Shown in pieces: positions 3,104 through 43,065 of a stretch of DNA of 64,000 nucleotides. Numbering within the stretch: the stretch's first letter is position 1; the number at the start of each line of letters is the position of its first letter. The translations under genes and the position numbers were made by a program. The notes below the pieces were generated by a model. That model had not been told where the DNA came from and searched no databases. It was given only the letters and a program-made list of their open reading frames with translations. The stretch is from contig LCGL01000001.1 of the NCBI GenBank assembly GCA_000999715.1, forward strand, positions 323,139 to 387,138. Reading direction: 5' to 3'. This stretch comes from Candidatus Falkowbacteria bacterium GW2011_GWF2_43_32. GTDB taxonomy: Bacteria > Patescibacteriota > Patescibacteriia > Patescibacteriales > UBA12465.

Positions 3104-4306
3104 CTACAGATACCGCGGTAAACGGCGCTTGGTTTTCAGGCTGGGAACCTTGATACAATAGATTAAAGCCCAAAAAATCCGGGCCAAACGACTTCGCAAA
3201 TGCCAGCCCCAGAGATTGCCTAAGGCCGATTTTTTACCCAAAGTCAAAAATTCACCGCGATGCTTATAAACAAAAGGCCGCAAGGGTTTGTTGAGCACAA
3301 GTGCTTCAATGTTTCTCGCCGCCACGACAGCCTGTTGATTGGCTACTTGCGCCAATCCGGGAAGAGGTCCCCCGTTTACCAGCAAACAAGAACTGTCCCC
3401 TAAACACAGAACGTTACGATGACCTTTCATTAATAATTCCGGAGTAATTTCCAGCCGGCCATTAACCGCCACCGGCTGATTGCCTAAAAATTCAGGAGTT
3501 TGCGCTTTAAGACCCGCGGCCCAAATAATATTTTCGGCCATAATTTCTTGACCGTTTTGCAAAACAATCCCTCGCGGCGACAAAGATTCCGCCAAAGAAT
3601 TAAAAATAATTTCCACGCCGATTTTATCAAAACATTTTCGAGCTTCGGCTCTCATCCAAGCGGGAAAAGAGGCCAAAATTTCCTGTCCGCGACTAATCAG
3701 TTTTACCGAAAACTCATTATCGCGCAAATGACTGCCCGCACTCAAAAAATGTTTCTGTTGATTCAACAATTGTTCTTGAATATGGGCCGCCAGCTCGACT
3801 CCGGTGGGACCGGCGCCTAAAACGGCAAAAGATAACAGTTGTCGCCGACGTTGTTCGTCACTTTCTTGAGAAGCAAGCAATAAAGCTTTTTCAATTTTGT
3901 CGCTTAAGCGAAGGGCGTCGTCAATGTCTTGAAATTTATAAATTCGGGAGCTTTCTGCCGGAAAAAAAATATCAGCTTTAGCTCCGGTGGCAATAACCAA
4001 AATATCAAAAGTCAAAATCGTTTTTTTCAATCGGACTTGACGCCGCTCCAGATCAACGGCGATTATTTCTTGATGATAAAAAGTCGTCCGCTTATCCAAT
4101 AAGCTCACCAAAGGAATGGCCACCTCGTCCGATCGCAAACGACCGAAAATCAATTCGGGCAACAAAGGAGTAAACAAAAAATAATCTCGCCGATCTACCA
4201 AAGCCAGCTCTATCAGTCCGCGACGCTGAAGCGGCTTTAACAGTTTGGCGGTTTTAATCCCGCCGAATCCCGCTCCCAAAATGACGACTCTTTGTTTATT
4301 TGTCAT
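3104..4306 (-). CDS. ndh: type II NADH dehydrogenase / FAD-dependent pyridine nucleotide-disulfide oxidoreductase
   Basis: 400 aa with an N-terminal VVILGAGFGG Rossmann motif and a second GAGPTGVE dinucleotide-binding motif. The length and layout fit NDH-2. Confidence 0.75.
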   Translation of the reverse strand: MTNKQRVVILGAGFGGIKTAKLLKPLQRRGLIELALVDRRDYFLFTPLLPELIFGRLRSDEVAIPLVSLLDKRTTFYHQEIIAVDLERRQVRLKKTILTFDILVIATGAKADIFFPAESSRIYKFQDIDDALRLSDKIEKALLLASQESDEQRRRQLLSFAVLGAGPTGVELAAHIQEQLLNQQKHFLSAGSHLRDNEFSVKLISRGQEILASFPAWMRAEARKCFDKIGVEIIFNSLAESLSPRGIVLQNGQEIMAENIIWAAGLKAQTPEFLGNQPVAVNGRLEITPELLMKGHRNVLCLGDSSCLLVNGGPLPGLAQVANQQAVVAARNIEALVLNKPLRPFVYKHRGEFLTLGKKSALGNLWGWHLRSRLARIFWALIYCIKVPSLKTKRRLPRYL

Positions 4307-4334
4307 GGCCGAATTTTATCATAAATTGTCTTAA

Positions 4335-4364
4335 TAAAAAAGAGCTCCCGAAAGCTCATTTTTT
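4335..4364. terminator. bidirectional intrinsic terminator upstream of ndh
   Basis: Hairpin GAGCTCCCGAAAGCTC (4342-4357), flanked by an A-run on the left and TTTTTT on the right. Confidence 0.6.
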
Positions 4365-4416
4365 GTAAATATGGTATTTTCACCAACTATTTTTGGGCAT
4401 TAAACCATAAATTAAT

Positions 4417-4444
4417 ATAAAAAGCCCACGTTTTATAGTGGGCT
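4417..4444 (-). terminator. intrinsic terminator of mini-unit 1
   Basis: Minus strand reads AGCCCAC-TATAAAAC-GTGGGCT followed by TTTTTAT. Confidence 0.6.
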
Positions 4445-4480
4445 CTTGCCTTCTCCTTTAAAGGCATTAAACAGTTTGTG

Positions 4481-4582
4481 TTAATAACAACCCTGTTTCC
4501 CAGTCGTTTTCAACAACTCCCTCTTTTGGTGATTTCGTGGCGAGCCGCGAGAATTTTTAACACTTTTTCTAATGTACTTCAT
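4481..4582 (-). CDS. 33-aa highly basic small protein (mini-unit 1), function unknown
   Basis: Own translation: MKYIRKSVKNSRGSPRNHQKRELLKTTGKQGCY*. A GGAGG sequence lies 8 nt upstream of the ATG, which is rare in this window. The ORF has its own TTGACA-17-TATTAT promoter and its own terminator. It is too short for the ORF track. Confidence 0.45.
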   Translation of the reverse strand: MKYIRKSVKNSRGSPRNHQKRELLKTTGKQGCY

Positions 4583-4623
4583 GTCTTTTTCCTCCATATT
4601 AAGTTAATACTAAAGACATTTAA

Positions 4624-4652
4624 ATAATATATCTGTTATACCTTCTTGTCAA
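4624..4652 (-). promoter_or_regulatory. sigma70-type promoter of mini-unit 1
   Basis: Minus strand: TTGACA (4652-4647), 17-nt spacer, TATTAT (4629-4624). Confidence 0.6.
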
Positions 4653-4733
4653 TTGGTTTACTTTCTCACAAAGAATCTATATTTTTAAAACAAAAAATGA
4701 CCATAAAATTATTTTTATACACCCCCTTACGGG

Positions 4734-4793
4734 GTGGCTAACCGCAAAACTTGGCAAACTTTTTTGATGGAGTGCTTGATACATTAAAAAAAA
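4734..4793. repeat. conserved inter-unit module, copy M1
   Basis: Plus strand: gtggctaaccgcaaaacttggcaaacttttttgatggagtgcttgatacattaaaaaaaacc. The first 40 nt differ from M4 at only 2 positions. All four copies share the core AAACTTG(G/A)(C/A)AAACTTTTTTGAT. Confidence 0.85.
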
Positions 4794-5013
4794 CCACCTA
4801 CATGAGATGGTTTTTGTAAAATAGTTCTTTAAGATACCGCAGTGATATCGCAATCCGCAAAGAGCTTCGGCCCACCCTCACAGGATGATTTTTTTATGCC
4901 TTAGCTACAATTCTGGGTTATCAACTCTTAGTGAGGACTTCCCCTTTAATTAGGTTAACCATCTTGCGAGTGATGGTCAGATACTTTGCCTAACTTTCTC
5001 AAAAAGAACTATA
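4785..5013 (-). ncRNA. candidate non-coding RNA A (mini-unit 2), about 229 nt, unknown family
   Basis: A promoter (TTGACT-16-TAAGAT) lies upstream. The terminator hairpin AACCATCT-CATGT-AGGTGGTT plus a U8 run is at 4812-4784. No start codon with a usable ORF is present. The 5' end (5012-5003) is perfectly complementary over 10 bp to 4830-4821, just before the terminator. There is also an internal hairpin ACCATC/GATGGT. Confidence 0.5.
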
Positions 5014-5018
5014 TTTAA

Positions 5019-5046
5019 ATCTTAACATTAGTATTCAAAAAGTCAA
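5019..5046 (-). promoter_or_regulatory. sigma70-type promoter of mini-unit 2
   Basis: Minus strand: TTGACT (5046-5041), 16-nt spacer, TAAGAT (5024-5019). Confidence 0.5.
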
Positions 5047-5112
5047 TAGATTGTACAACATTAAACTTAAAACAAAAAATAATTCCTAAAAAGAAATTGT
5101 TTTTATATATGA

Positions 5113-5176
5113 GTGGCTATTCGAGAAACTTGAAAAACTTTTTTGATTAAATATTTGATAAATTGATATAAAAAAG
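5113..5176. repeat. conserved inter-unit module, copy M2
   Basis: Plus strand: gtggctattcgagaaacttgaaaaacttttttgattaaatatttgataaattgatataaaaaag. It differs from M3 at about 1 position over roughly 48 nt. Confidence 0.85.
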
Positions 5177-5199
5177 ACCCGCGATATTGTTACGGATCT
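5170..5199 (-). terminator. intrinsic terminator of mini-unit 3
   Basis: Minus strand: AGATCCG-(11-nt loop)-CGGGTCT followed by TTTTTTA. Confidence 0.6.
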
Positions 5200-5245
5200 T
5201 ACAGTTTTTATTTAAACATATTTTGAGGGCATGAGCTAATAGTGA

Positions 5246-5398
5246 TTAAACCTCAAAATTTTCCCTAATGGAGTAAAGAAACGCCAACATGAAAGCTGCG
5301 CCAGCGCAAGCTAGAGTTATAACTGATGCTTCAGACTTCCAGTAAAAAACAAAAATGCCAAAAAGAATTGCTGTAAAATAATTAAAGAATGTTTTCAT
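5246..5398 (-). CDS. 50-aa two-TM hydrophobic peptide (mini-unit 3)
   Basis: Codon-by-codon translation: MKTFFNYFTAILFGIFVFYWKSEASVITLACAGAAFMLAFLYSIRENFEV*. An AGGAG sequence lies 9 nt upstream of the ATG. The ORF has its own promoter, a roughly 115-nt leader and a terminator. Confidence 0.5.
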   Translation of the reverse strand: MKTFFNYFTAILFGIFVFYWKSEASVITLACAGAAFMLAFLYSIRENFEV

Positions 5399-5430
5399 AA
5401 CTTATGACTCCTATTTTTAATGTTAAATAT

Positions 5431-5486
5431 AATTAGATTAATTATTAAGTTTACTAACATTAATAGACTTAATAATTAATCTAATT
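5431..5486. promoter_or_regulatory. perfect 20-bp inverted repeat in the 5' leader of mini-unit 3
   Basis: aattagattaattattaagt (5431-5450) is the exact reverse complement of 5467-5486, with a 16-nt loop. It lies between the predicted start site (about 5512) and the SD/ATG (5398). Confidence 0.8.
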
Positions 5487-5519
5487 TTAACCTTTTTGTA
5501 ATGAACTATATAACTAAAT

Positions 5520-5548
5520 AATATATCACATATATTATATTTTGTCAA
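5520..5548 (-). promoter_or_regulatory. sigma70-type promoter of mini-unit 3 (extended -10)
   Basis: Minus strand: TTGACA (5548-5543), 17-nt spacer ending in TGTGA, TATATT (5525-5520). Confidence 0.6.
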
Positions 5549-5635
5549 TCAATTTATATTATTTAATACTGTTGAGCCACATTTTAACCTTACATAATAG
5601 AAAAACCGAGCTTTCGGACCCGTGCTTTCCTTAAT

Positions 5636-5929
5636 CTATTCCCAAAAAATTAATACCAATGAAACAACCCCCAACAAGAAACCGATGATTTGAATTCTAT
5701 TAATCGGCTCCTTATAAAGCACCATCCCCAATATTACTGCGATAATAGCCGACGCCACAGAAAAAATAATTGCTCCTCTTCCTAGTCCGGCTCCATTTTT
5801 AAGAGAAAACAACCAAAAAGAATTTGCCACCAAATAAAGAGCAAGGCTGATTATTGCAAACCAAATTATTTTTTTTAGCGACCACTCTTTTGCAAATACG
5901 TCAGCAACTGCTTCAAAAATTATTAACAA
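5636..5929 (-). CDS. SMR/EmrE-like small multidrug-resistance-family membrane protein, possibly 5'-truncated
   Basis: 97 aa with four TM segments. The motif IIFEAVADVFAKEW aligns with the EmrE TM1 segment ILAEVIGTTLMKF, including the membrane-embedded Glu. The start is a TTG with no SD, only 5 nt from module M3. Confidence 0.5.
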   Translation of the reverse strand: MLIIFEAVADVFAKEWSLKKIIWFAIISLALYLVANSFWLFSLKNGAGLGRGAIIFSVASAIIAVILGMVLYKEPINRIQIIGFLLGVVSLVLIFWE

Positions 5930-5934
5930 TAAAA

Positions 5935-5988
5935 GCGGAAAACTTGAAAAACTTTTTTGATTAAGTATTTGATAAATTGATATAAAGA
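5935..5988. repeat. conserved inter-unit module, copy M3 (left part missing)
   Basis: Plus strand: gcggaaaacttgaaaaacttttttgattaagtatttgataaattgatataaagag. It lacks the GTGGCTA.. left end found in M1, M2 and M4. The SMR-like ORF starts where that end would be. Confidence 0.85.
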
Positions 5989-6238
5989 GAGGGCTAATTG
6001 CTTAGCCCTCAAAAATTTAGAACTCGTTGAACTGCTTTCAAGGCTATTTCACTCTATTCGCCCCTTCGATTAATAAGGACGGTATCTTATTTTTGACTCC
6101 GCTAAAGCTGGCGCCCTAGGTTCACAGTCTCCCGCCTATTCTGCACATTACTAATCTATCTTCAAGCCAACATACAGGAATTGGACCCGCTGGAGATATA
6201 ATCTCTTGCGCCCATTGCGCTACATTGTTTCTAAATTT
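5985..6238 (-). ncRNA. candidate non-coding RNA B (mini-unit 5), about 255 nt, unknown family
   Basis: The promoter is TTGACA-17-TAATAT. The terminator-like hairpin GAGGGCTAAGCAATTAGCCCTC (6010-5989) has only a weak U-tract. No ORF longer than 9 codons is present. The 5' end (6238-6228) pairs over 11 bp with 6023-6013, just before the terminal hairpin, which is the same architecture as RNA A. Confidence 0.45.
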
Positions 6239-6244
6239 AATTAA

Positions 6245-6273
6245 ATATTATAAATAAAATCAACTTTTGTCAA
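6245..6273 (-). promoter_or_regulatory. sigma70-type promoter of mini-unit 5
   Basis: Minus strand: TTGACA (6273-6268), 17-nt spacer, TAATAT (6250-6245). Confidence 0.6.
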
Positions 6274-6346
6274 CAAAAATACAGCAAGATCTATTTTAAC
6301 CCTCATATCCCAGAAAAAAGCAAAATAGTTCATTTTTCCCAAATAG

Positions 6347-6410
6347 GTGGTTAATCGCAAAACTTGGCAAACTTTTTTGATGGAGTATTTGGTGAGTTGA
6401 TAAAAAAGAG
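6347..6410. repeat. conserved inter-unit module, copy M4
   Basis: Plus strand: gtggttaatcgcaaaacttggcaaacttttttgatggagtatttggtgagttgataaaaaagag. Confidence 0.85.
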
Positions 6411-6433
6411 ACCCTTGATGTTATCGCGGGTCT
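6402..6433 (-). terminator. intrinsic terminator of mini-unit 6
   Basis: Minus strand: AGACCC-(12-nt loop)-GGGTCT followed by CTTTTTTAT. Confidence 0.6.
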
Positions 6434-6459
6434 AGAAATTAGGTAATAAAATCTTTAAT

Positions 6460-6609
6460 TTACATAAACATCAGAGACATCAAAATAAATACCGCAGCAA
6501 TAGCCCACGCAAGCGATGATTTTTTAGATTTTTTTTTAAAACTAAAATATAAACAAAGAATACCGGTAATGAATACTAACACTTTTAAAATTAGAATAAA
6601 AATTTCCAT
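6460..6609 (-). CDS. 49-aa two-TM hydrophobic peptide (mini-unit 6)
   Basis: Codon-by-codon translation: MEIFILILKVLVFITGILCLYFSFKKKSKKSSLAWAIAAVFILMSLMFM*. It has the same TM-charged loop-TM layout as the 5246-5398 peptide. Its leader carries a degenerate version of the unit-3 palindrome. The SD is weak (AGAAA). Confidence 0.4.
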   Translation of the reverse strand: MEIFILILKVLVFITGILCLYFSFKKKSKKSSLAWAIAAVFILMSLMFM

Positions 6610-6717
6610 TATTTCTATTTTTTAATTTAACAATTCGATTAATTCTTAAATTTACTATTTATAATAAACTTAATAATTAACCCAATCGTTTTTTGTAAAA
6701 GAACTATATAACGAAAT

Positions 6718-6746
6718 ATCATATCACATTTACTATTTTTTGTCAA
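6718..6746 (-). promoter_or_regulatory. sigma70-type promoter of mini-unit 6 (extended -10)
   Basis: Minus strand: TTGACA (6746-6741), 17-nt spacer ending in TGTGA, TATGAT (6723-6718). Confidence 0.6.
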
Positions 6747-6838
6747 TTAATTTGTCTTCCCACTAGGGGGTAACAAGACCAAAACAAAAAATAACCCCAA
6801 TCCGCCAGCCGGCGGAGGAGTTATTTTCGCTAATATTA

Positions 6839-7057
6839 GGGTGCCTACTGGGAGTATCTCACTCAGCCGCCGCCGGAAACGCGGCGGCTTCGCTCGTCCT
6901 GGGTTGGCGCCGAGCCCTGCGCCAGCTCGGGTTCGTCGACGCTCGTCCGCTCATTTCGGCTTCCGCCTCAACTCGCGTCTCGCTTCCAACCTGTTCAACT
7001 TCCCGGCTAACGCCGACAGTAATAAAAGAACGCGCAAATGCGCGTTTTTTTATTACT
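6839..7057 (-). repeat. tRNA-His trailer module: hairpin, inverted T-arm copy, GC-rich spacer, 17-bp repeat of the tRNA 3' end
   Basis: gggtgcctactgggagt occurs at 6839-6855 and again at 7058-7074 inside the tRNA (17/17). The hairpin is at 7018-7057. gttcaacttccc (6993-7004) is an inverted T-arm copy. The spacer at 6856-6992 is GC-rich. Confidence 0.85.
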
Positions 7058-7058
7058 G

Positions 7059-7130
7059 GGTGCCTACTGGGAGTTGAACCCAGACTATCGGGACCACAAC
7101 CCGACGTTCTACCGCTAAACTATAGGCACC
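7059..7130 (-). tRNA. tRNA-His (anticodon GUG) with encoded G-1
   Basis: Cloverleaf read by eye: GGTGCCTA acceptor including G-1:C73, anticodon stem TCGGG/CCCGA, loop TTGTGGT, T-arm TGGGTTCAACTCCCA. Confidence 0.85.
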
Positions 7131-7169
7131 ATGATTATATTTTAACGTATCTTTAACGATCGTTAAACG

Positions 7170-7241
7170 TACGCCCGGGGGGAGTCGAACCCTCATCTAG
7201 AGCTTAGAAGGCTCCCGTTCTATCCGTTGAACTACGGGCGC
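7170..7241 (-). tRNA. tRNA-Arg (anticodon UCU)
   Basis: Acceptor GCGCCCG/CGGGCGT, anticodon stem GGAGC/GCTCT, loop CTTCTAA, T-loop TTCGACT. Confidence 0.8.
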
Positions 7242-18983: not shown

Positions 18984-18991
18984 TCTTCCTG

Positions 18992-19065
18992 TGCGCCTAG
19001 ATGGACTTGAACCATCGACCCCCGCTTTATAAGAGCGGTGCTCTAACCACCTGAGCTATAGGCGC
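18992..19065 (-). tRNA. tRNA-Ile with anticodon UAU
   Basis: Read as GCGCCTA-TA-GCTC-AGGTGGTTA-GAGC-A-CCGCT-CTTATAA-AGCGG-GGGTC-GATGG-TTCAAGT-CCATC-TAGGCGC-A. The anticodon loop CTTATAA gives U34 A35 U36. Confidence 0.75.

Positions 19066-41657: not shown

Positions 41658-43065
<1,408 letters not shown>

Follow-up and report, generated by a model that had tools for sequence, protein, structure and literature searches.

Small cassettes arrayed at tRNA-His in Patescibacteria end in a repeat that matches the right end of large serine recombinase elements and probably mark an integration hotspot

The 64,000-nt stretch of DNA analysed here (hereafter the window) belongs to contig LCGL01000001.1 of Candidatus Falkowbacteria bacterium GW2011_GWF2_43_32 (positions 323,139 to 387,138 of the forward strand; assembly GCA_000999715.1). 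The region studied, positions 4307-6838 plus the adjoining 6839-7057, lies between the ndh gene (3104-4306, minus strand), which forms its downstream border, and a tRNA-His gene, and all of its units are on the minus strand (Table 1). An initial annotation, made from the sequence alone, had described 4307-6838 as an AT-rich, ORF-poor array of six same-strand mini transcription units. The composition is as described, with a GC content of 0.25-0.37 over 4400-6800 versus 0.41-0.49 in the flanks, and a single open reading frame (ORF) of 60 amino acids (aa) or more, on the minus strand (97 aa). All five near-consensus promoters that had been proposed for this strand were recovered by a consensus scan, which returned 18 promoter-like sites in the region versus 11.0 +/- 3.6 in shuffles. 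Terminator-like hairpins, of which 11 were found versus 2.3 +/- 1.7 in shuffles (an excess of about 5-fold), occur at the places that had been indicated, and the small ORFs of 33/38 aa (4481-4597), 50 aa and 49 aa are likewise present.

The tRNA-His(GTG) gene, which ends a conserved gene order of SpoU methylase, tRNA-Arg and tRNA-His, is the anchor of the array, and its 3′ end (..GTAGGCACCC) corresponds to the attachment core discussed below. As the initial annotation had reported, the last 17 nt of this gene are duplicated, and the copy is exact (6839-6855 = 7058-7074; repeat D12). What had been missed is a direct repeat of 61 nt in four copies (4733-4793, 5112-5172, 5926-5986 and 6346-6406; D1), the unit boundaries that it sets, and the nature of 6839-7057 as an inserted unit. 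The 22-nt core of the repeat, AAACTTGRMAAACTTTTTTGAT, has four matches in the window versus 0.01 expected, and the repeat is restricted to the tRNA-His locus, with no copy elsewhere in the window. Its conserved 55 nt will be named hereafter ELEMENT. Every ELEMENT copy sits directly 3′ of a terminator, on the same strand as all units, so that the six units give way to other boundaries: ELEMENT splits the region into four cassettes of 0.4-0.8 kb (W1-W4), one of which (W3) holds two of the earlier units, and leaves outside them a GC-rich unit beside tRNA-His and, at the other end, a terminal unit that has no ELEMENT. The terminal unit is either a native gene downstream of tRNA-His or the last cassette. 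A partial repeat between units 1 and 2, which had been taken as a sign of duplication or recombination, was found again (23 nt, 83% identity; D9), being short enough to have arisen by chance.

The four ELEMENT copies differ in their state of preservation. Those at 4731-4785 and 6346-6396 are near consensus, the copy at 5111-5163 has an in-frame stop, and the copy at 5933-5986 is without its core end and fused with the 97-aa ORF. This fusion accounts for the lack of a promoter in front of that ORF, which the initial annotation had already remarked on when it called the gene SMR-like. The ORF is indeed there; its match to the Pfam family EamA is above the cut-off (30.9 bits), whereas that to SMR itself is weak. 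Only positions 56-134 of the EamA profile are covered, and the ORF may be truncated N-terminally.

ELEMENT recurs at the same place in other genomes. Scans with the exact core returned 24 genome loci, 17 of them with true ELEMENTs, and 48 metagenome loci; two of the fetched loci (L040 and L044) adjoin on one contig and together hold seven ELEMENTs. With an nhmmer profile, 86 copies (69 unique) were identified at 43 loci besides the window (17 genome and about 26 metagenome loci), at 1-5 copies per fetched locus and always in one orientation. The hosts are almost all Patescibacteria, or differently titled metagenome-assembled genomes (MAGs) with the same synteny; among the latter are third-party annotation (TPA) MAGs titled ‘uncultured Gammaproteobacteria’ and one titled ‘Bacilli’ (among L011, L014, L017, L025-L027 and L029), whose synteny is of the Patescibacteria type and whose taxonomic labels look wrong. 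At 25 loci, as in the window, genes for PBP1, a SpoU-type methylase, tRNA-Arg(TCT) and tRNA-His(GTG) are followed by repeats of payload plus ELEMENT. Over its 55 nt ELEMENT reaches nhmmer E-values down to about 1e-18, with an identity of about 85-95% as estimated by eye and not computed, and it is far better conserved than the host proteins, which are 45-62% (SpoU) and 58-68% (PBP1) identical to those of the window. It contains internal direct repeats, not inverted ones.

What the arrays carry varies from one genome to the next; 48 of 51 payload ORFs run in the same direction as the tRNA. Among the proteins encoded are five GNAT acetyltransferases, an AbiEi/AbiEii pair, SET, HNH and 4Fe-4S (Fer4) proteins, lipoproteins, membrane proteins and transporters, and about 30 have no Pfam match. 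Homologous payloads occupy differing array positions in differing hosts, and several cassette families recur in distant hosts (the L1-stalk RNA described below, a small-peptide family, GNAT and a 184-aa protein). Pfam searches found no recombinase or integrase among 46 array payloads, and no tyrosine integrase or transposase was seen beside the arrays save one IS481-like rve gene in L071 (1969-2853 in tRNA-oriented coordinates, minus strand; rve, rve_3 and HTH_28), which lies right after the last ELEMENT and indicates that the hotspot collects insertion sequences (ISs) too. In another locus (L028, 3252-3845), a GNAT payload ORF has no stop of its own and reads into ELEMENT in the tRNA direction (..NLPNIPSKKFSKFCA), terminating at the TAG of ..TTAGCCACC; ELEMENT can thus give its cargo a C-terminal tail and a stop codon.

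The ELEMENT end ..CGATTAGCCACCCC (cassette end ..TTAGCCACCC) closely imitates the tRNA-His 3′ end CGATAGGCACCCC; over ~14 nt the two differ, by eye, in one substitution and one indel, and in L084 they are identical. What follows in the tRNA direction, 3′ of either the tRNA or an ELEMENT, falls into three classes of left end. Class A reads ..TTGGAAAAGACGAGTCTAAAAGCTCGTTTTTTCTGTTATATAAGG..GGTTTGCC. Class B consists of an A-run, a hairpin, a T-run and GTTTTAG, followed by a promoter module CCCCTAAnGGGAAGACAAACTnnTTGACA-17-TATGAT, and class C is built like class B with a different hairpin. The classes are mixed inside single arrays, class B and C ends abut the core exactly, and the promoter module is kept across genomes while each cassette has a hairpin of its own. 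The window cassettes have left ends of the B/C type. At an empty site (L109), the native sequence downstream of tRNA-His is of the B type (A-run, hairpin and T-run) like the left ends in the window, and since these resemble the native B′ arm, the tRNA|B junction would stay attB-like. The native first gene after this empty site encodes a 423-aa 4Fe-4S protein (L109, 4895-6166), and the same protein is found as a cassette between two ELEMENTs (L044, 2184-3455) and as the first gene after the array in L077.

The variation of ELEMENT has a 3-nt periodicity. Over the 69 unique copies, deviations at codon positions 1, 2 and 3 number 119, 103 and 191 in the frame GTG GCT AAT CGC AAA ACT TGG MAA ACT TTT TTG ATG GAA TAT TTG GTA AAT TRR, which lies on the strand opposite the payloads and ends at a position where TAA, TGA and TAG interchange. 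The 17 codons specify VANRKTWQTFLMEYLVN*. The possibility of a micro-ORF of 17 aa, or of a C-terminus belonging to a resident gene on the plus strand, was dropped, there being no conserved start and stops lying 0-9 codons upstream in many copies; an antisense frame of ELEMENT with matching wobble was rejected as well, as it is interrupted by stops in L026. The codon-like variation finds its explanation in L043, where the class A sequence that adjoins the 3′ half of tRNA-His is the 3′ end of an opposite-strand gene for a 499-aa large serine recombinase (LSR) with Resolvase, Recombinase and Zn_ribbon_recom domains. The C-terminus of this protein (...EWQTTFLPLYNRKNELLDSSFPNG|VARGNRTLIF) runs into the antisense strand of the tRNA, and an ELEMENT is found 9.9 kb off, at the far end of the LSR element.

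The same site and architecture were found in L082, L083 and L084/L085, with element sizes of 7.4 kb, 10.0 kb and >11.4 kb. In each of the four loci the LSR element is the first unit after tRNA-His, and in L084 it is inserted in front of a cassette of the B/C type. Next to tRNA-His lie the genes for the LSR, a second serine recombinase of 247-266 aa and an AAA_25 helicase, in this order and all directed toward the tRNA. Small genes follow, then cargo in the opposite orientation, and ELEMENT forms the far end. The second serine recombinase (L043, L082-L085), immediately upstream of the LSR, has Resolvase and Recombinase domains and no Zn ribbon; a role as partner subunit or directionality factor is possible. 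In the databases the LSR family has 56 matches at E<=1e-20, all with Resolvase and Recombinase and nearly all also with Zn_ribbon_recom domains. Of 34 sequences inspected, most, including nearly all with more than about 50% identity, end in ..SSF..GV(P/A)xGN(RT), which is tRNA antisense, and the most divergent ones lack this tail. The catalogued copies with such a tail must therefore be integrated ones. This also explains why a 40-aa junction peptide, searched against a set of 5.8 billion proteins, retrieved two short ORFs only and no long protein ending in the ELEMENT peptide: the catalogued LSRs carry the tRNA-antisense tail instead.

When ELEMENT was joined to the LSR side at a conserved ACC, the reconstructed attP had, in three of three elements, an unbroken ORF whose tail is encoded by ELEMENT (..GVANRKTWQTFLMDYLVN in L083, ..GVANCKTWKTILMEYLIN in L043 and a degenerate ..GVASGEAWKTFLINYTTK in L084). 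At the natural ELEMENT|class-A junctions within arrays, the frame is likewise uninterrupted between the NELL..SSF motif and the stop in ELEMENT in almost every copy, and the class A left ends of 14 loci are remnants of LSR residues ~445-487. By sequence comparison, then, ELEMENT is the right end of the LSR elements and completes the LSR frame across the reconstructed attP, supplying its last 17 codons. Hence ELEMENT would be the P arm of attP, left behind as an attR scar, class A would be the P′ arm, and the crossover core would lie inside the LSR gene. Ends of the IS200/IS605 or Xer/dif type, which the hairpins and direct repeats had suggested, were dropped on the strength of the LSR link; a phage origin was also rejected, with one chance match of the ELEMENT core and none of the LSR profile in IMG/VR.

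These results make it probable that 4307-7057 is an integration hotspot at tRNA-His that holds an accretion array of small cassettes with attR scars and no LSR, and the best reading of the window is that of an old array of this kind at an LSR docking site. The initial annotation, which had considered an islet acquired at tRNA-His or a modular accessory locus, was thus essentially right, arrays with differing cargo being found at tRNA-His in 25 other loci and their modules ending in the conserved right-end scar of a serine recombinase integrative element. In the proposed scheme, elements of 7 to >11 kb with an LSR, a small serine recombinase and an AAA_25 helicase would insert at the 3′ end of tRNA-His in Patescibacteria. 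The LSR ORF would read on into tRNA antisense in the integrated state, and the 17 codons carried by ELEMENT would complete it in the excised circle. Recombination presumably takes place at the att core. A cassette would consist, in the tRNA direction, of a hairpin, a promoter of the sigma-70 type, a payload (small membrane peptide, transporter fragment or non-coding RNA), a terminator and an ELEMENT imitating the tRNA-His 3′ end, and we presume from their sequences that the predicted promoters and terminators are in use. As there is no LSR in the window, the window cassettes must be non-autonomous. They may have stayed behind from earlier integrations, or be mini-elements that depend on help to move, and it seems likely that such cassettes are or were mobile as units. 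Such help could be an LSR in trans acting on attR-like circles, or homologous recombination of the tRNA with the ELEMENT-plus-hairpin modules of ~100 bp, possibly following the uptake of DNA; the window does contain a gene for DprA.

A number of observations weigh against an LSR-based origin of the array. A tblastn search with the L043 LSR found neither an LSR nor an LSR remnant in the window, no integrase was present among the annotated genes of the window or, by Pfam, among the flanking ORFs tested, and neither an excised circle nor an intact attP-type LSR ORF was found in the protein database. The LSR profile retrieved no relative from IMG/VR. Degeneration or truncation affects two of the four ELEMENTs in the window, and the left ends in the window are like native terminators (B/C) and not LSR-derived (class A), so that the canonical attP x attB reaction alone does not explain how these cassettes were formed. 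Moreover, among assemblies with identical SpoU, seven of the window's species and several of two other species show no strain-level variation of the ELEMENT array, which speaks against recent mobility of the cassettes. The initial annotation had proposed a check of whether unit number or content varies between strains; it does not for the ELEMENT arrays of these three species, and what does vary is the copy number of the GC-rich unit, in another species (see below). Two Logan contigs of the window's species (L003 and L004) end exactly inside ELEMENT copy 1 (~4772). These breaks are due to a 31-mer common to the ELEMENT copies and do not reflect variation, and ELEMENT arrays are probably under-assembled in public data, as 31-nt identity breaks k=31 assemblies.

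A broader proposal, which we hold tentatively and consider possible though not the likelier outcome, is that Patescibacteria possess an integron-like platform in which the LSR, alone or together with recombination after DNA uptake, captures and shuffles self-expressed sub-kb cassettes with protein and RNA cargo. Stated without a founding role for the LSR, the idea becomes an alternative to the hotspot reading, one that we regard as unlikely: the arrays themselves would be the platform, units made of hairpin, promoter, payload, terminator and ELEMENT would circulate and be inserted by a recombinase in trans or by RecA after transformation, tRNA-His and the ELEMENT-plus-hairpin modules would serve as portable homology, and LSR elements would be only users or donors of the site. 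Several of the features described above fit this well, namely the exact abutment of class B and C ends on the core in arrays that also contain class A, the individual hairpins combined with a CCCCTAAnGGGAAGACAAACTnnTTGACA promoter module that is conserved across genomes, the same cassette families at different positions in distant hosts, the tandem amplification of the GC-rich unit at a site without ELEMENT, the presence of DprA in the window and a cargo like that of integrons. However, the LSR family is the only recombinase linked to the arrays, the coding periodicity of ELEMENT makes sense only as part of the LSR ORF, ELEMENT has none of the inverted-repeat structure of attC, and neither a circular cassette nor a strain-level cassette polymorphism was seen.

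The comparison with integrons is instructive in both directions. Common to the two are arrays of small cassettes in the same orientation, a site remnant at the cassette end, a fixed anchor (here tRNA-His) and a similar cargo of GNATs, toxin-antitoxin pairs and many small proteins without assigned roles. Integrons, in contrast, have the tyrosine recombinase IntI, whereas none is found beside ELEMENT arrays and the recombinases linked to them are of the serine type. The attC sites are inverted-repeat hairpins conserved in structure, whereas ELEMENT is conserved in sequence (over its 69 unique copies) and lacks attC symmetry. Integron cassettes are mostly promoterless and expressed from Pc, whereas ELEMENT cassettes carry a near-consensus promoter (W1-W4) and a terminator.

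Under the hotspot reading, the closest relatives of the system are integrative elements with LSRs, which insert unidirectionally and site-specifically, by recombination at the central dinucleotide of short att sites, and are bounded by attL and attR. The family described here shares the Resolvase, Recombinase and Zn-ribbon domains of serine integrases such as those of phiC31, Bxb1 and TP901-1, and its ELEMENT and LSR sides, to the former of which the window ELEMENTs are homologous, rebuild attP when joined, as attR and attL halves of such elements would. It differs in that the att core lies inside the recombinase ORF, whose last 17 codons would be swapped on integration, in that arrays of sub-kb cassettes bearing the P arm were left by, or coexist with, the elements, and in that the recombinase gene is present in relatives (L043, L082-L085) and absent from the window, which has only scars. 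To our knowledge, targeting of a tRNA 3′ end is usually a habit of tyrosine integrases. In archaeal viruses of the SSV1 type, the int gene contains attP and is split when the virus integrates into a tRNA gene. Both systems thus have a tRNA-homologous att core within the recombinase gene and a gene that differs between the free and the integrated form; SSV1-type integrases, however, are tyrosine recombinases of archaeal viruses, whereas here a serine recombinase is found in a bacterial host (Patescibacteria), the exchange would concern only the 17 C-terminal codons, and the integrated ORF keeps its length by way of tRNA antisense.

Tandem accretion at tRNA genes reportedly also occurs in the cis-mobilizable elements (CIMEs) of streptococci and in the tycheposon islands of Prochlorococcus. 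These likewise comprise cargo-only units with att remnants beside a tRNA gene used by autonomous relatives, and partial tRNA repeats bound the cargo here too (the ELEMENT end and the exact 17-nt copy of the GC-rich unit). Tycheposon-like islands use a tyrosine recombinase, whereas the linked recombinases here are serine recombinases; in addition, the window units are unusually small (0.4-0.8 kb) and uniformly built, and their repeat is a piece of a recombinase ORF and not just a partial tRNA. In searches of the full-text literature, neither tRNA-His cassette arrays nor this LSR element family turned up for Patescibacteria (Candidate Phyla Radiation, CPR), which makes the initial statement that the layout resembles no described system a fair one. 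We know of no description in which a serine recombinase with the att core in its ORF, tRNA-His as the target and mini-cassettes that are uniform and self-expressed occur together.

Table 1. Annotated and predicted features of the tRNA-His region, in the tRNA direction; unit numbers are those of the initial annotation, and ratios give matches to the promoter consensus
Feature	Coordinates	Strand	Remark
tRNA-Arg(TCT)	7169-7241	minus	ARAGORN; conserved neighbour upstream of tRNA-His
tRNA-His(GTG)	7058-7129	minus	ARAGORN; Rfam tRNA, 66 bits
GC-rich structured-RNA unit	6839-7057	minus	219 bp between duplicated tRNA end and tRNA-His; GC-rich body of ~170 nt
GC-rich unit, terminator hairpin	7029-7046	minus	
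GC-rich unit, tRNA-His 3′ copy	6839-6855	minus	
Cassette W1	6346-6838	minus	unit 6
W1 left-end hairpin and T-run	~6789-6828	minus	
W1 promoter	6718-6746	minus	GGGAAGACAAATTAATTGACA; 11/12
W1 5′ untranslated region (UTR)	6632-6693	minus	AU-rich, palindromic
W1 peptide ORF	6460-6609	minus	49 aa, two transmembrane segments (two-TM)
W1 terminator	6409-6433	minus	picked up as repeat I3
W1 ELEMENT	6346-6406	minus	
Cassette W2	5933-6345	minus	unit 5
W2 promoter	6245-6273	minus	10/12
W2 RNA	5989-6238	minus	~250 nt; L1-stalk homologue at 6068-6156
W2 terminator	5989-6010	minus	
W2 ELEMENT	5933-5986	minus	without core end
Cassette W3	5111-5932	minus	units 4 and 3
W3 EamA/SMR-like ORF	5636-5929	minus	97 aa; start inside truncated ELEMENT
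W3 terminator, first	5607-5622	minus	
W3 promoter	5520-5548	minus	11/12
W3 5′ UTR	5428-5489	minus	palindromic
W3 peptide ORF	5246-5398	minus	50 aa, two-TM
W3 terminator, second	5175-5199	minus	picked up as repeat I3
W3 ELEMENT	5111-5172	minus	degenerate
Cassette W4	4731-5110	minus	unit 2
W4 left-end hairpin	5081-5098	minus	followed by T-run
W4 promoter	5019-5046	minus	9/12
W4 transcript	4789-5012	minus	ORF-less, ~200 nt
W4 terminator	4789-4815	minus	
W4 ELEMENT	4731-4793	minus	near consensus
Terminal unit	4307-4730	minus	unit 1; no ELEMENT after it
Terminal unit, hairpin	4720-4736	minus	overlaps core of last ELEMENT
Terminal unit, promoter	4624-4652	minus	11/12
Terminal unit, peptide ORF	4481-4582	minus	GGAGG; 33-aa basic peptide
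Terminal unit, terminator, first	4420-4447	minus	
Terminal unit, terminator, second	4342-4357	minus	

Two kinds of cargo RNA were analysed further. Rfam scans of the region, at the gathering cut-off and at E<=1, gave besides the tRNAs only chance matches to terminator-like leaders and one threshold-level fragment of the large subunit (LSU) rRNA, with zero matches for unit 1, unit 2 and the GC-rich unit. The thermodynamic fold z-scores of three RNAs are unremarkable (-1.95 for unit 2, -0.43 for unit 5 and -1.49 for the third), so that structural support for the cargo RNAs comes from covariation only. The LSU match lies in unit 5 and corresponds to the L1 stalk (model positions 2126-2215); its score of 50.4 bits lies right at the threshold, and it was not found again in sub-range or homologue scans. 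Four homologous cassettes (in L055, L044/L063 and L010) align over their full length with a mean column identity of 83%, and a profile of these four homologues matches E. coli 23S rRNA only at 2080-2181 (E 9e-12). Their consensus fold, which with four sequences is suggestive only, has 63 pairs, 11 of them compensatory, and would comprise a 10-bp closing stem, a tRNA-like domain and helices matching H76-H78. The predicted T-arm, with the loop UUCGAUU, covaries between CGGG/CCUG and CUGG/CCAG.

Ribosomal protein L1 binds helices 76-78 of 23S rRNA and an mRNA mimic of them in the leader of the L11 operon. Unit 5 resembles these sites in having GGGAG...GGAG...AUACC together with the H76-H78 helices. 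In contrast to the L11 operon leader, however, it precedes no ribosomal protein gene; the RNA is free-standing, from promoter to terminator, on a cassette, and is fused to a T-arm/tRNA-like domain with a long-range closing stem. No free-standing L1-stalk mimic RNA was described in the full-text literature searched, and rplA is not in the window. We hypothesize that the unit 5 RNA is an L1-binding decoy or regulator; if the integron-like platform existed, such a mimic could titrate protein L1 or act as a decoy for a ribosome-targeting factor.

The GC-rich unit between the duplicated tRNA end and tRNA-His has relatives of about 220 bp in L078, L033, L025 and a Falkowbacteria species (L092-L101), all of which end in an exact copy of the last 17-20 nt of tRNA-His. 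A structure derived from five members contains 53 pairs, and compensatory changes are seen in 30 of these; the share of paired cells is 93.6%, versus 35-49% with slid partners, and none of 500 shuffles reached the observed values. G-U pairs indicate that the functional strand is the one co-oriented with the tRNA, and one helix, GGGAAU/AUUCCC, draws on the tRNA-His-like 3′ tail. In the Falkowbacteria species, the number of tandem copies of a 222-bp unit after tRNA-His differs between samples (one, two or at least three), and no ELEMENT is present there. The GC-rich unit is thus a second, independent kind of unit at the tRNA-His site.

Units 3 and 6 have in common their promoter, the motif at the transcription start site (TSS) and a 60-nt AU-rich palindromic 5′ UTR (D2, D4 and I2), and cassettes with homologous promoter, 5′ UTR and peptide were also found in L013, L020, L055 and L010. 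The 49-aa and 50-aa two-TM ORFs behind a structured 5′ UTR have the form of type I toxins, and weak plus-strand promoter-like sites (9-10 of 12 matches) lie opposite the 5′ UTRs (5404-5433 and 6693-6722). The initial annotation had listed a cassette array like a type I toxin-antitoxin system among its possibilities. On this view the region would be a native regulatory islet, the peptides toxins, the non-coding transcripts and repeats antitoxin or regulatory RNAs, and the 55-nt repeat a shared 3′ regulatory element. We judge this highly improbable. Pfam searches with the two peptides matched no toxin family, a repeat search of the region showed no complementarity between non-coding and peptide units, and no antisense partner emerged beyond the weak plus-strand sites; the repeat is situated past the terminators and therefore probably outside the peptide mRNAs. 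Furthermore, only two of the units are small hydrophobic peptides, and elsewhere the same repeat follows enzymes, transporters and RNAs, including the GNATs, the AbiE pair and the SET, HNH and Fer4 proteins, and ends LSR elements. The toxin-like form of the small peptides does not explain the array.

That the region is neutral debris, in which ordinary genes have decayed and promoter- and terminator-like strings arose by chance in AT-rich DNA, is barely credible: two ELEMENT copies are degenerate, the EamA/SMR-like ORF is possibly truncated, unit 2 lacks homologues and its fold z-score is weak, and 11 promoter-like matches are expected in shuffles of such DNA, but against this stand the enrichment of terminators, compensatory base changes in the conserved unit 5 RNA and GC-rich unit, promoter modules conserved across genomes and an array that is identical in seven independent assemblies. 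The Rfam and homology checks proposed at the outset to distinguish the units from decay gave relatives for unit 5 and for the cassettes of the two-TM peptides and none for units 1 and 2: no homologue of unit 2 was found in any fetched locus, and the 33-aa peptide of unit 1 had neither a Pfam match nor a homologue in other fetched loci.

The genomes of Patescibacteria are tiny, with few described mechanisms for exchanging genes. A conserved, origin-proximal docking site combined with dedicated serine recombinases and ready-to-express cassettes would be a major route for acquiring and losing accessory functions, and the 55-nt ELEMENT beside tRNA-His offers a simple marker of the flexible gene pool of Patescibacteria in metagenomes. 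The free and integrated forms of the LSR imply different C-termini and possibly a directionality switch, and new LSR/att pairs would be of practical interest as tools for genome engineering. Two RNA families absent from Rfam emerge as well, the L1-stalk/tRNA-like mimic, a testable link between a mobile element and the ribosome, and the GC-rich RNA with its tRNA-His tail, which varies in copy number within a natural population.

Two observations concern the remainder of the window. A 16S rRNA gene is located at 41659-43065 on the minus strand (a match of 1407 nt versus the 1533-position model), and as no 23S or 5S gene accompanies it in the 64 kb, the rRNA genes are unlinked. ARAGORN also predicted a tRNA-Ile with the anticodon TAT (UAU) at 18991-19065 on the minus strand, adjoining a tRNA-Val(GAC); AUA is usually decoded in bacteria by a CAU tRNA carrying lysidine, and the same tRNA-Ile was seen in L048.

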